Below, one piece after another: positions 40,901 through 46,900 of a stretch of DNA of 64,000 nucleotides. The DNA is from Gemmatimonadota bacterium (GTDB taxonomy: Bacteria; Gemmatimonadota; Gemmatimonadetes; Palauibacterales; Palauibacteraceae). Where the stretch lies: the NCBI GenBank assembly GCA_963666735.1, contig OY762926.1, positions 544,001 to 608,000 on the forward strand. The letters run 5' to 3'. Numbering within the stretch: the stretch's first letter is position 1; every line of letters starts with the position of its first letter. A program made the position numbers.

Positions 40901-43900
40901 ACGCTGGAGAAGCGGTTCGGCGACCTGTGGGTCCGCGGCGAAGTGACGAACTGGATCCGTTCCTCCGCCGGGCACCGCTATTTTTCGCTTCGGGACCAGG
41001 AGCGGGACGCCAGCGTCGCGTGTGTGTTCTTCCGGGGAGATGCATGGCGCCTGCCGGCGGATCCGGAGGACGGCATGGAAGTCTTCGTCCATGGCCGTCC
41101 GACCCTCTACGCCCGGCAGGGACGGTTCCAGTTGCGCGTGCGCGCCATTGAAGCGGCGGGCGAGGGGCTGTGGAGGATCGCCTTCGAGCGGCTCCGCCGG
41201 GAGCTGGCGGCGGAGGGCATGCTGGACCCGGAGCGCAAGCGCGCGTTGCCCGCGTTCCCGCGCCGCGTGGGCGTCGTCACATCGCGCAAGGGCGCGGCCC
41301 TTCAAGACATCATCACGGTGCTCAAGCGGCGGGCCCCCTGGGTCGAGATCGTGGTTAGCCACTGCCGCGTGCAGGGCGAAGGCGCGGCCGGCGAAGTGCG
41401 GGCGGCCCTTCAGCGCCTCGCGGATTGGGGCGCGGGCAGTCCGGACCGGAAACTCGACGCGATCATCCTCAGCCGGGGCGGCGGGTCGATGGAGGATCTG
41501 TGGTGCTTCAACGAGGAGATGGCGGTTCGAGCGGTGACGTCGAGCCCGGTCCCCGTGATCTGCGCCATCGGGCATGAAGTCGACGTGACGCTGTGCGAGT
41601 TGGTGGCCGACGTTCGGGCGCCGACGCCGTCCGCGGCGGCGGAACTCGCCGTGCCGGATGTCCGCAGCGTCCGCGCCTCGCTCGACACGGCGGGAAGAGG
41701 TCTGGCTCGCGGGTTGCGCCGGCTCATCACGCGCGGGAGCGATCGCGTGGAAGCGGTGGCGCAACGCCTGCCCGTCTCCGCGGGACACGCGCGCGATGTC
41801 GCGAAGCTGCGCCTCGCCACCATGGCGGCCCGCCTCCCGGCGGGAATGGAGCGCGTTCTTGCCCGCTCGCGTACACGGCTCGCCGGACTGGCCGCCGCGC
41901 TCGACGCGCTGAGCCCGCTCGAGACGGTGGCTCGCGGCTACGCCGTCGCGACCGACCTCGAAGGACGCCGGCTCACGCGGATCGACGACTTCACGCCGAG
42001 ACAGCGCTTCCGCCTGCGGGTCGGGGGAGGGCAGGTCGCGGCGACGGCGGACGCCGTGGAACGTGACGCGGTGGAACCCGCCGCCGTGCAGCCGGATGCA
42101 GGGCAACCGGACGCAGTGGAGCCGGGCCCGTGAGCGAGCCTTCGACGGAGTTCGAATTCGAGGAGGCGATGCGGGAGCTGGAACGGATCGTCGCACGCCT
42201 TGACCGGGAGGGCGTCGGCCTGGACGAGGCGGTCGCGCTCTTCGAGCAGGGGATCGAGCGTCTCGGCAAGGCTCGGCACTGGCTCGAGACGGCGAGCGGC
42301 CGGGTCGAGGCACTCATCGCGTCGTCCACGGGAAAGCTGGAAGCGACGCCGTTGGAAGGGGTGGAAAACCCGGGCGGCAAGCCGGAGGACCAGTCGGACG
42401 GCGAACCTTGACCCCGACGCTTGATGAGCTGCGCGCCGCCATCGACGCGGAGCTGGAGGGCTGGCTGTCCGAGACGTTGCAGGGGACGGACCCGATCGCG
42501 GAACCCATTCGGTACGCCGTCCTCGCAAAGGGGAAGAGGATCCGGCCCCTCCTGTTCGCCGGGGCCTGGGAAGCCGCGGGCGGCGTCAGGGGGCCGATCC
42601 CGGGGAACGGCGCCTCCGCGCTCCATCGCATGGCGCTGGGGCCCGAACTCGTCCACACGTATTCCCTGGTCCACGACGATCTCCCGTGCATGGATGACGA
42701 CGACCTTCGCCGGGGGCGGCCGACGGTGCATGTCCGGTATGGGGAGCGCGCCGCGGTCATGACGGGAGCGGCGCTGCTTCCGCTCGCGATCCGTGCCGTA
42801 GCGGAAGGGGCTGCGGGTCTGGGGCTGCCGGACCCTGTTGCGGGCCGACTCATCGGGATTCTCACCGCGGCGGCCGGCAGCGACGGAATGGTCGGAGGCC
42901 AACTCCTCGACCTCCTCGCCGAGAAGAAGCGCGTGAGCTTCGAAGCGCTCGCGCGGATCCATCTCGGCAAGACGGCTCGCCTCATCGCGGCCTGCTGCAC
43001 CATGGGCGGCGTCGCGGCCCGCGCGCCCGAGGAGACCGTCGATCGACTGACCCGCTTCGGGATCGCGATCGGGCTCGCATTCCAGACGGTGGACGATATC
43101 CTCGACGTGACGGGCTCCTCGAGCCGCATGGGGAAGATCGGCGGACGGGATGAAGCCCTGGGAAAGGCGACGACGCCATCGATCCTCGGCCTGGAAGGAG
43201 CGAGAGTACGCGCGGAACAGTTCGGCCGCGAGGCGCTCGGCGAGATCGCACCGCTCGCCGACCCGGACCGGCTGCGGAAAATCGTACGCATCGTCCTCGA
43301 CCGCGACCGTTGAGCGGCCGGTGACGTTCTTCATCATCGGCAACGCCGACCACCCGGAACTGGAGCCGCTTCTCCACCGCGTCGAGCGGAAAGCGGATGA
43401 GCTCGGTGTCTCTCTCGTCTTCGAGCCGTCGCTCGCGCTGAAGGCCGGATGCGACTCCGCCTCGCTGGAGGAGATCGAAGGGGAGGTCACCCTCGTGCTG
43501 GTCCTCGGCGGGGATGGTACGTTGCTGCGGGCGGCTCGTCTGGCGGCGCCCCGCGGGATTCCCGTGCTGGGCTGCAACCTGGGCCGGCTGGGGTTTCTCA
43601 CGATGGTGTCGGAGGATGAACTCGAGGCGGCGATGTCGATGGTGGCGAGCGGGGACTACGCGCTCGAGAGGCGGATCGCCCTCCGCATCCGGGTGGTTCC
43701 GCACGGACCCGACGGGCCGGACGAGCGGAGCTTCTACGCGATCAACGACGCGGTCATTCACAAGAGCGGCTTCGCCCGCCTGATCGGGCTGCGCGTGCTG
43801 GCCGATGACGATGAAGTGGGACACTACAGCGCGGATGGCATCATCCTCGCCACGGCCACGGGCTCGACCGCCTACAGCCTCTCCGCGGGCGGCCCCATCG

Positions 43901-46900
43901 TCTCCCCGACGATGGATGGCATCGTCGCCACGCCGATTTCGCCGCACACGCTCGCCGTGCGCCCGGTCGTGTTTTCGGGAGACACGAGGATCTCCGTCGA
44001 ACTCCTCTCGGGCGACCACGACCTGCAACTGACCGTCGACGGACAGCCGGGTTGTCTTCTTTCGGTCGGGGACCGCGTGGAAGTCTCCCGCTCGCGGCAC
44101 GCCGTGGGTCTGGTCCGGCTGCCCTGCCATTCGTTCTTCACCGTACTCAGGCGGAAGCTGCGGTGGGGCGATGTCCGCCAACACCCAACGCCCCCGTCCG
44201 GGGGGGAAGGGGAATAGCGGGTGTTGAGGGAGCTTCGGGTTCGGAACTTTGCCGTCGTCGAGGAAGCCACGCTTGAATTCGGACCGGGCCTCAGCGTGCT
44301 CAGTGGCGAGACCGGGGCGGGGAAATCCATCCTCGTTGAAGCGCTCGCGCTCCTCGTCGGAGGGCGACCGTCCCAGGACATGATCCGGGCGGGAGCTGGA
44401 ACCGCCCGCATCGAGGGCCGCTTCGAGATCGAGGACGTCGACGGACTGCGGGCGCTGTGCGAGGACGCAGGTGTCGACCGGGAAGATGGCTGGCTCATTC
44501 TGTCTCGCGAGTTGCGTCGCGAGGGGCGGCACCGGGCATGGGTCAACGGCTCACCGTCCACTACGGGAAGGCTGCGTGAGTTCGGGGTTCGGCTGCTCGA
44601 CCTCCACGGACAGCACGATCACCAGCGGCTCCTGGACCGCGCGTGGCAGCGGCGGATTCTGGACGCCCATGGCCGGCACGAGGCGCTGGCCGAGCAGACG
44701 GTGGCCGCCTACGGAGGCTTGCGGGCCATCGAGGGACGCCTCGAGGACACGCGCCGCGCCGCGCGCGAGGGGCGTGAACGCGCGGACTACCTGCGCTTCA
44801 AGCGGGACGAGATCGCCGGGGCCGGGCTCGATCCGCACGAAGATGAGGCGCTCGAATCGGAAGCCCGCCGCCTCTCGCATTCCGAAGAGTTGATCGAACT
44901 CTCGGGTTCGCTCCACCACGGGCTGTACGAAGGCGAGGGGTCGATCGTCGACCAGTTGGGCGAGTTCGCGGCCCGCCTCGAGGCGCTCGTCGCGATCGAC
45001 CGCGAGGCGGGTCCCTTCCGCGACCTGCTCGAGGCCGCGCTCCACAACGTGGAGGAACTCGGGCGGAACCTCGCTCCGTACCGGGACTCGATCGAGCACG
45101 ACCCTCGACGGCTCGACGAGATCCGCGTCCGGCAGGATCTCCTCTACCGGCTCAAGCGCAAGTACGGCGGCACCCTGGAAGAGGTGATTGGCGCGGGCGA
45201 GGAAGCCCGGCGTGAGTTGGAGACCGTGCGGGGAGCCGATGACGAGATCGAGCGCCTCGAAGCGGTCCGGGAGGCCGCGTCCGTCGAACTGGCCGCGCTG
45301 GCGTCGGAACTCTCCGAACGGCGCCGCGAAGCGGCCCGCGCGCTCGCCGAAGCCGTGACGGCCGCGCTCCCGGAGCTCGGGCTCCGGGGGGGGCGACTCG
45401 AGATCAGGCTCGACGCCTATGGCGAGATCAGGGGGACCGGCGCCGAACGGGTGGAGTTTCTCGTCTCCCTGAATCCGGGTTTCCCTCCGGCGCCGTTGCG
45501 GCGCGTCGCTTCCGGGGGCGAGATGAGCCGCCTCATGCTCGCGCTCGAGACCGCCCTCATCGAAGTGGACGACTTGCCGGTGCTCGTGTTCGACGAGATC
45601 GATGCGGGGATCGGGGGCGAGGTGGCGCACCGCGTGGCGGCCCGGCTCGTGCGGCTTTCGGCCGCGCACCAGGTGCTCGTCGTCACGCACCTCGCGCAGA
45701 TCGCGGCGCGCGCCGATGCCCACTACTCCATCGGCAAGGTCACGGAAGCCGACAGCGCGCGGACGTCGGTCCGGGTGCTCACCGGCGGCGAACGCGTCCA
45801 CGAAGTCGCCCGCATGCTCGGAGGCGACCCCGCCAGCCGCGCCTCGCGCGCCCATGCCGAGGAGTTGCTCGCGGGCCAGTTGTGACGGCAGCCCGGCCCG
45901 GGCCCTGCCCGGCCGGGATGGCAGGAAGGTGCTGGCTAGCTTAGCTATAGCTAGAAGATGTTGATCGGGAAGCGGAGTTCGGCCCCGTAGCGGAAGGAGG
46001 CCGGCGTTCGCCCCCCGGAGCCCGAGATCGCGCGGCGCAACGAGATGCCGAACTGCCATGCTCCGCGCACAGGTCTTGCCCCCTCATGCAGTTCCTCGAC
46101 GCTCCCTGCTTCGGACAGGTCGATGAGGAGCCCGATTCCCATCCGATGGCGGGTTTGCGCTCCCTCCGCCGCTACCGTGTTCGGGTCCAGCCCCTCGATC
46201 GCCCCGACGAACTGGTAGGTGGGCGCCTGCAGCCGGAAGTAATCGTACTCGATCCCCACGCTGAGGGCGGCGTTGAAGCGAAGGGAAGGGCGAACCAGAA
46301 CCGCGAGGTAGTCTCCCAGATCGCGCCGCATCAGCGCGACCAGGTCTTCCTGGCCGTAGGGGCGATCCGGAGGGTTGAAGCGGATCACCGCCTCGTCGGG
46401 GCGCTGCAACCCGTAGCGGGCGGAAGCGCGGATCATGAAGAGGCTCCCGAGGGCGATGTCCTGGTACAGCGCCAGTTCGATGTCGGTTTGGCCGTCCCCG
46501 ATCGGCAGGTCCGACGAGTTCGACGGGTCTCCGAAGATCGTGAGGTTGCGGTTTCGGATAGGGAGTCGGGCCAGTCCGCCCACGCTCGTGCGGAACCGAA
46601 TGCCGCGTTCTGAAGCCGCGCCGGGATCGGACCCCGCTTCCGCACCCCCGGCCGGCCCCGGGATCGGCGTTCGGCGCGTGATGCCGTCGATCAGGTTCAC
46701 GCGCACGAAGACTTCGACCTCTCCCAGATCGAGTTCGTTTCTGCTGTCTCGCGGCAGTCGATCGGCGAGGCCCTGACTCAGGAACAACGTGTTGAAGTCG
46801 TCCTCGGTCGCGAACTCGGGCAGTGAAAGCTCCGGCAGAGCCAGGCCGAGGGCGTCGAACGCCGCCGCGAAGTCCGAGAATCGCCGCGCCATTTGGGTCC

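Follow-up and report, generated by a model that had tools for sequence, protein, structure and literature searches.

Clean loss of dxs beside retained DXP-consuming pathways in the Palauibacterales and in a second clade of Gemmatimonadota

The gene dxs, for Dxs, the synthase of 1-deoxy-D-xylulose 5-phosphate, has been cleanly deleted from an xseA-xseB-ispA-dxs-nadK-recN operon at least two times in the class, once in the order Palauibacterales and, independently, in a second clade outside that order. DXP (1-deoxy-D-xylulose 5-phosphate) is normally made by Dxs and is the precursor that isoprenoids share with vitamins B1 and B6. Because Dxr, ThiG and PdxJ, which are retained, require DXP, we conclude that another resident enzyme very probably supplies it. 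None of the known bypasses fits both losses.

The source genome (G000) is one contig of 3.98 Mb with no N. The window, the whole stretch of 64,000 nucleotides that was analysed, contains the following features around the former position of dxs:

40799..42133, + strand: xseA, exonuclease VII large subunit (open reading frame; upstream context)
42130..42411, + strand: xseB, exonuclease VII small subunit (gene call; same place in relatives)
42408..43313, + strand: ispA, farnesyl diphosphate synthase (NF045485 FPPsyn, E 1.6e-77, 260.5 bits, cut-off 275)
43314..43320, + strand: 7-bp spacer, the vacant ancestral dxs slot, free of remnants (sequence and relatives' loci)
43321..44217, + strand: nadK, NAD kinase (NAD kinase models, E 1.5e-67, under their cut-offs)
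44221..45885, + strand: recN (open reading frame; downstream context; same place in relatives)

The families of ispA and nadK are the best NCBIfam matches, both under the curated cut-offs, and the NCBIfam scan returned no match to xseB at E ≤ 1e-25; the names xseA, xseB and recN are those we take to be correct from sequence and gene order. The stop codon of ispA is the TGA at 43311-43313 and nadK starts with GTG. Across the order, ispA lies immediately 5' of nadK in 20 of 22 loci and xseB does so in 2 of 22. Where dxs is present, the order ispA-dxs was found in 12 of 12 loci, nadK comes next in all 10 that are not cut by a contig end, and dxs lies just 5' of nadK in 3/3 further loci (two of which are perhaps loci of the same genomes or of close kin). 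The genome-wide survey's note had placed a clean loss of dxs between ispA and nadK, and both the 7-bp gap and the filling of the slot by dxs in 10/10 complete dxs-positive loci bear this out. The slot contains no replacement gene in any of the 27 dxs-less loci, being vacant in 22/22 loci of the order and 5/5 of the second clade.

The best match to the Dxs model TIGR00204 in the source genome (E 5e-17) covers the C-terminal part only, and tblastn searches of this genome with Gemmatimonadota and E. coli Dxs recovered only E1 subunits and transketolase. None of the order's 101 genomes (68 of high quality, 14 single-contig) has a TIGR00204 match over the cut-off. Both families of the order are affected; the loss is order-wide, as had been claimed. 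The five strongest partial matches in the order (159-170 bits) are confined to the C-terminal half, and the one of these that we inspected is a split transketolase. The earlier count of zero genomes with PF13292 holds for real Dxs, since the PF13292 match in the source genome, which touches the cut-off at 21.2 bits, sits on the pyruvate dehydrogenase (PDH) E1 alpha gene. All organisms examined are represented by metagenome-derived genomes, 65-98% complete, which might suggest that dxs is unassembled or diverged beyond recognition. This is scarcely credible given the 14 single-contig genomes among the 101, the abutting flanking genes, the assignment of all partial matches in the source genome to E1 or transketolase, and an independent annotation of 52 MAGs that has no K01662 row and yet K00099 in 46. 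On the TIGR00204, PF13292, tblastn and NCBIfam results together, a hidden or diverged dxs was rejected.

The note had found PF13292 in 40 of 40 other Gemmatimonadota. Outside the order, dxs is not universal: 17 of 121 genomes of one other family (f6) lack dxs, and in the five loci of this second clade it is the same slot that stands vacant. The clade retains the MEP, thiamine and pyridoxal phosphate (PLP) genes, and it lost dxs independently of the order.

In the order, dxr is retained in 55/61 genomes and thiG in 61/61, and dxr of the source genome scores above its cut-off; pdxA was found in all five genomes tested (two of them in the order). For the source genome, we take ispD-H, pdxJ and thiC/D/E/S to be assigned correctly by motifs and gene order, and ispD-H are further supported by reciprocal matches in a second dxs-less genome, G173. 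Between these two genomes, dxr, thiG, pdxJ, ispG and ispH are 57-72% identical, whereas the median identity of their 1150 shared proteins is 52%. HMG-CoA reductase is absent from the source genome, as stated, although 5/5 tested members of the order without dxr do encode it. Loss of dxr thus parallels gain of HMG-CoA reductase, and part of the order went over to the mevalonate pathway. The need for a Dxs-independent source of DXP is therefore well supported, more strongly than was first claimed, by the universal thiG and by this tracking of dxr loss.

As the best single mechanism, we tentatively favor a side reaction in which a thiamine-dependent E1 already in the cell acts as a carboligase. 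The candidate would be an alpha/beta-type housekeeping thiamine-diphosphate E1, either that of pyruvate dehydrogenase or one of its fused or branched-chain paralogues. Such an enzyme would decarboxylate pyruvate and pass the two-carbon unit to glyceraldehyde 3-phosphate rather than to the lipoyl arm, yielding DXP at a low flux that may be enough for slow-growing cells. An ancestral side activity would explain why the slot is empty and why no gene was gained beside the DXP consumers: no inserted candidate common to the source genome and G173 adjoins dxr, ispD/E/F/G/H, thiG, thiC, thiD, pdxJ or pdxA. It would also make a repeat of the loss understandable, as well as the later acquisition of the mevalonate pathway by some members. 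The E1-alpha family is present in 30/30 genomes (2 to 6 matches per genome), and PDH alpha, PDH beta, a fused E1 and one more alpha/beta pair are common to the source genome and G173. At genome scale, the source genome has PDH E1 alpha and beta at 3050514-3052615, the fused E1 at 3056549-3058717, and the other alpha and beta at 847245-848384 and 2713514-2714488. According to PMC3424233, pyruvate and glyceraldehyde are converted to 1-deoxyxylulose by purified PDH, and 22 of 26 E. coli dxs suppressors are single changes in PDH E1. However, every dxs-positive relative has the same E1 genes as well, and having them is therefore no distinguishing mark.

At the residue level, the DTP motif of E1-beta has its Thr four residues N-terminal of the catalytic Glu, and this Thr is replaced in 14/16 dxs-less genomes, being kept in 2/8 genomes of the order. 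It is retained in 13/14 dxs-positive genomes (the exception has Ser). Among 80 loci of further relatives, the motif was unreadable in 4, and 72 of the other 76 keep the Thr; the matching residue of E. coli Dxs is Val. The comparison across genomes covered E1-alpha and E1-beta. The pair of dxs-less clades has 2 discriminating columns of 1208, and a control pair of unrelated clades likewise has 2. The E1-beta change is thus no more than expected by chance and may serve as a weak lead only. In E1-alpha, no column discriminates dxs-less from dxs-positive genomes.

For dxs-less Acidobacteria with aceE (PMC5462960) and for E. coli AceE suppressors (PMC3424233), DXP has been proposed or shown to come from PDH E1. 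The homodimeric AceE model TIGR00759 exceeds its cut-off in 5/6 acidobacterial genomes, in contrast to 0/37 Gemmatimonadota, which have only alpha/beta-type E1, and K00163 is found in 1/52 MAGs. An AceE-type bypass was accordingly rejected. That the published suppressors sit in homodimeric AceE also counts against the favored E1 side activity.

Nearly as probable as the E1 side activity is a dedicated, unrecognised DXP-making enzyme or small module, a non-homologous substitute for Dxs encoded away from the pathway genes and perhaps different in each clade. The threefold and very stable demand for DXP (thiG in every genome, consumers 57-72% identical) is perhaps beyond a weak side reaction, the known routes all fail, and 172 of 181 dxs-less species are likewise unexplained in PMC10663253. 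Against it, no open-function sugar-phosphate enzyme stood out among the shared proteins listed, of which 391 are non-syntenic and 260 syntenic. These are part of the 1191 reciprocal best hits between the source genome and G173 (91.7% covered, 2.36/2.57 Mb) and were judged by their N-termini, with 60 scanned against NCBIfam; the list was not filtered by the dxs-positive G255, of which 0.14/2.02 Mb was covered. With similar caution, we consider it possible that both clades have an undescribed DXP-forming enzyme or route, distinct from Dxs, AceE, RibB/YajO and the MTA shunt and perhaps not requiring thiamine, whose efficiency would let free-living cells make isoprenoids, thiamine and PLP.

Alternatively, the route of E. 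coli suppressors might operate, in which ribulose 5-phosphate is turned into DXP through RibB, a YajO-type aldo-keto reductase or both; we regard this as unlikely. RibBA (30/30 genomes tested), transketolase and Rpe are all present, and YajO-like reductases are common. At genome scale, ribBA spans 827605-828852 in the source genome, tkt ends at 953399 and an aldo-keto reductase lies at 1649776-1650693; G173 has one at 2167688-2168719. An alignment of 29 RibBA proteins shows the TTG(I/V)SAxDR stretch conserved, with no suppressor-type change. The E. coli sites G108 and D113 presumably fall within it. A His-to-Gln change at the GHTE motif of RibB (GQTE) was striking at first and is also found in dxs-positive relatives. 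Of 52 MAGs published for the order, 40 carry the YajO annotation K23107 (supplement of PMC10469786), and a close YajO (51-54%) occurs in 10/11 second-clade genomes versus 3/10 dxs-positive members of the same family. In the order, however, a close YajO was found in only 1/28 genomes, the rest being 36-43% identical and not a single orthologue group. The closed dxs-less genomes G034 and G279 have one weak aldo-keto reductase match and no YajO-like protein, 13/19 dxs-positive genomes have YajO-like proteins as well, and deletion of yajO in E. coli lowers DXP by only 6% (PMC12617950). A pyruvate-accepting transketolase was also rejected, as the enzymes of the source genome and G173 are canonical, with intact GHPE and PTHQP motifs. 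The His residues of these motifs are, we assume, the equivalents of E. coli transketolase H100 and H473. Engineered pyruvate-accepting variants have lost those active-site His residues.

A shunt from SAM by-products, in which MTA or 5'-deoxyadenosine would pass through a phosphorylase, MtnA and an unknown isomerase, is a distinctly unlikely source for the order. The MTA-isoprenoid shunt of Rhodospirillum rubrum makes DXP without Dxs, and the source genome shares its MtnA and nucleoside phosphorylase. MtnA is present in 13/13 order genomes and 39/52 published MAGs, where its product has no known consumer because there is no order-wide downstream aldolase or dehydratase. The RuBisCO-like isomerase and methylsulfurylase of R. 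rubrum are missing: PF00016 exceeds its cut-off in 0/5 genomes and K01601 is found in 1/52 MAGs, confirming the absence of a RuBisCO-like protein, and K01767 is found in 3/52. Tandem Zn-dehydrogenase domains occur in G007 but not in G000, G158 or G173, YjbQ is present in 2/5 genomes, and none of the cupins inspected in the source genome adjoins shunt genes. Thus, neither the RuBisCO-like protein nor Cupin_5, the Zn-dehydrogenase pair or YjbQ is a general replacement. Across 80 mtnA neighbourhoods (one named Palauibacter), no recurring enzyme neighbour has a counterpart in the source genome. Class II aldolases are patchy and absent from the closed G007; the source genome's two copies, which we take to be an adducin-like type and an aldolase-SDR fusion type, lie far from mtnA. 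MtnA occurs in only 1/10 second-clade genomes and yet in 11/14 dxs-positive relatives. The Dxs-independent route proposed earlier is well supported, whereas MtnA and the aldolase are not supported as its parts.

Uptake of DXP or 1-deoxyxylulose from a host or neighbours is very unlikely. Animals as hosts rely on the mevalonate pathway and are not known to produce DXP. Xylulokinase occurs in 4/52 MAGs, and the sole FGGY kinase of the source genome is of the glycerol kinase type. In favor of uptake, import has been proposed for Wolbachia (PMC10253641) and sponges are the source of some members of the order (PMC10469786). Against it, sediments and saline soils are also among the habitats of the order (PMC10469786), and the loss spans both families.

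The MEP pathway without Dxs has already been published for other phyla, and the losses in Gemmatimonadota are an addition. Marshall et al. (2023, PMC10663253) surveyed 4400 species and described it in 181, for the most part Wolbachia and other Anaplasmataceae, but also Acidobacteria, Rhodothermus, Salinibacter, Rubrobacter and others; our check of their list found no Gemmatimonadota, and Gemmatimonas aurantiaca has dxs. Those species resemble the order in having all MEP genes minus dxs and no known route; they have no mevalonate pathway, and the source genome has no HMG-CoA reductase. They differ in that here the loss spans a whole order with free-living members and ThiG in 61/61, and recurs in a clade with dxs-positive close kin. 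Rhodothermus marinus (bioRxiv 10.1101/2021.05.17.444423) is likewise free-living, is cultured and has its route stated as unknown, but carries the RuBisCO-like protein and methylsulfurylase that the order lacks. Our literature search, which reached few subscription papers, turned up neither a description of dxs loss in Gemmatimonadota nor a new natural Dxs substitute.

PMC10663253, PMC5462960 and the R. marinus model paper all name it as an open question how the MEP pathway runs when Dxs is missing. Since Dxs is both the feedback-limited bottleneck when terpenoids are engineered and a proposed target for antibacterials, a natural replacement is relevant to either field. The class offers a good comparative set: dxs was lost cleanly and independently in two clades, many of the genomes are closed, there are sister genera with dxs, and a switch to mevalonate took place within the group. 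For the order itself, the label of thiamine producer needs to be qualified, as no source is known for its thiazole precursor.

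The slot between ispA and nadK, from which the genome-wide survey's note had reported dxs to be cleanly missing, is empty in the genome carrying the window (G000). The assembly is a single contig of 3,977,883 bases with zero N, and it contains no Dxs: the TIGR00204 and PF13292 models, like tblastn queries with two Dxs proteins, matched only pyruvate-dehydrogenase-type E1 subunits and transketolase. That the gap is an artefact is barely credible. The relevant features of the window are:

xseA-xseB-ispA-nadK-recN, + strand, gene order around the slot
43313, + strand, end of ispA
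43321, + strand, start of nadK
47980-48951, gene that we take from its sequence to be calcium/proton-exchanger-like, with an apparent frame change near 48115 in the ORFs

The frame change may be an assembly error. The gap between ispA and nadK is exactly the place of dxs in dxs-positive members of the phylum, with the order ispA-dxs at 12 of 12 loci and dxs-nadK-recN at all 10 loci free of contig-end cuts.

The loss extends throughout the Palauibacterales, as had been claimed: none of 101 order genomes, spanning 31 genera and both families, has a TIGR00204 match above the cut-off; 68 of them are of high quality and 14 single-contig. At 22 loci of the order nadK is adjoined by ispA (20) or xseB (2); ispA is also gone from the operon in G058 and G036. 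Five genomes of family f2 (L005-L009) have a stronger TIGR00204 match that is C-terminal and transketolase-like, and the one examined (G013) is a split two-gene transketolase. PMC10469786 annotates 52 MAGs independently: the portion of its supplement file 10 consulted lacks a K01662 row and records dxr in 46, thiG in 49 and pdxJ in 47; the main-text parts searched nowhere mention dxs. Across the phylum, dxs is present in 133 of 151 genomes; with the order and family f6 set aside, it is present in 125 of 126 (123 of 124 without the unpublished G152 and G188, which these counts include).

Family f6, of another order, lacks dxs in 17 of 121 genomes. Twelve of these consist of one or two contigs (genera g60, g69, g137, g142 and g144); the other five are fragmented, and assembly gaps may account for some of them. 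All 5 dxs-less f6 genomes tested have an empty slot, which is filled in 3/3 dxs-positive ones. A RibBA tree (29 rows; frameshifted G265 excluded) placed eight dxs-less f6 genomes in a single clade (100/100); between this clade and the order lies a supported branch with dxs-positive genomes on either side. Together with the same dxs slot in other classes, this means that dxs was lost at least twice, on the basis of one gene tree and taxonomy rather than a formal test. G173, a member of this second clade, retains dxr, ispD-H, thiC/D/E/G/S, pdxJ and pdxA (2.36 of 2.57 Mb read).

The ribBA genes of the second clade are located as follows:

L191, L194, L196, L197, L200, L201, L205 and L207, ribBA of the dxs-less f6 genomes
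L173:14232-15473, ribBA of G173

Their GTP cyclohydrolase II domain is without the cysteine triad and QEGRG motif in 8/8 genomes and is the sole PF00925 match in 5/5 tested. The RibB part is intact, ribD, ribE and ribH are retained in the operon, and RibA domains of the Palauibacterales are intact (8/8). Judging from these sequences, the usual enzyme for step one of riboflavin synthesis seems to be missing from the clade too.

Isoprenoid, thiamine and PLP branches all require DXP. The survey's argument that consumers kept despite dxs loss imply a Dxs-independent source is borne out by dxr in 55/61 and thiG in 61/61 high-quality order genomes; DXP would thus be made without Dxs, and its import we consider very unlikely. 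Five of the six dxr-less order genomes were tested and all encode HMG-CoA reductase, versus 0/5 genomes picked as MEP users, so dxr was lost where mevalonate genes arrived and a MEP-to-mevalonate switch occurred within the order:

G008, G052, G054, G058 and G083, family f1, dxr-less with HMG-CoA reductase

ThiG is kept even in dxr-less members with mevalonate genes. Dxr, ThiG, PdxJ, IspG and IspH share 57-72% identity between G000 and G173, where the 1150 proteins common to both have a median of 52%; the values for IspD, IspE and PdxA fall below these, at 39-41%. The G173 thiC (L096:13784-17614 region) is 83% identical to that of G000, far over the median, and gene order is not conserved, which suggests transfer. 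Adjoining it is a two-subunit aconitase X pair, nearest to cis-3-hydroxyproline dehydratase and also found in G000.

The named bypass genes are absent in the genomes searched, and no gene in the slot or adjoining any DXP consumer is common to G000 and G173. AceE occurs in 0/37 Gemmatimonadota, in contrast to 5/6 Acidobacteria. RuBisCO-like protein, already noted as missing, was found in 0/5 genomes. MtnA is present in 13/13 order genomes, 1/10 of the second clade and 11/14 dxs-positive relatives, and the methylsulfurylase KO in 3/52 MAGs (PMC10469786 annotation, as consulted); an MtnA-linked shunt to DXP appears quite improbable. Class II aldolases of unrelated types occur in 4/5 genomes (none in G007). 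One G173 protein of 361 aa (L163:6355-7440), whose class II aldolase domain is weak and which falls in no NCBIfam family, has a similar match in G277 and is missing from G000. YjbQ occurs in 2/5 genomes, with three copies in G007, and tandem Zn-dehydrogenases in G007 only, of five genomes:

G007:C1:1077142-1078487, two tandem Zn-dehydrogenase domains

A ribulose 5-phosphate route to DXP fits the second clade best and is on the whole improbable. RibB is single-copy, without a dxs-linked change at conserved sites. A close YajO orthologue is found in 10/11 genomes of the second clade, 1/28 of the order and 7/19 dxs-positive genomes; the YajO-like copy of G000 is genus-specific, and closed G034 and G279 have none. 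Transketolase histidines are canonical, at residue numbers that we presume for these site checks; pyruvate-accepting transketolase variants exist. The consulted rows of the 52-MAG annotation (PMC10469786) assign the YajO KO in 40 and xylulokinase in 4, with none for FsaA or MgsA. YajO/RibB are described in parts of PMC8791446 and PMC12617950.

As to which enzyme forms DXP, we infer, tentatively, that a side reaction of a resident alpha/beta-type E1 would supply it. We rank this first because such thiamine-diphosphate enzymes occur in 30/30 genomes tested, pyruvate dehydrogenase reportedly joins pyruvate and glyceraldehyde into 1-deoxyxylulose, and its E1 changes are the commonest E. coli dxs suppressors (PMC3424233, in part). 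An E1-beta site near the catalytic Glu is changed in 14/16 dxs-less genomes and is Thr in 13/14 dxs-positive genomes and 72/76 further relatives; a control clade pair has an equal number of discriminating columns, so a tie between this change and dxs loss is a lead only. A dedicated, unrecognised DXP-forming enzyme ranks a close second. No candidate emerged among 651 proteins read by eye and 60 scanned, of 1191 G000-G173 reciprocal best hits, a set drawn from two dxs-less genomes and unfiltered against a dxs-positive proteome.

We found no literature report of dxs loss for Gemmatimonadota, nor any dxs discussion in the PMC11596202 and PMC11651109 passages searched. The portions consulted of PMC10663253 list 181 species with MEP but without Dxs, 172 unexplained and none from Gemmatimonadota. 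The same gap appears in the consulted accounts of R. marinus (bioRxiv 10.1101/2021.05.17.444423), Acidobacteria (PMC5462960) and Wolbachia (PMC10253641), and in PMC12583986 and PMC13001223. No described bypass explains the loss of dxs here, which is real, order-wide and repeated in a second clade, and constitutes a new case of a known phenomenon, the MEP pathway without Dxs.
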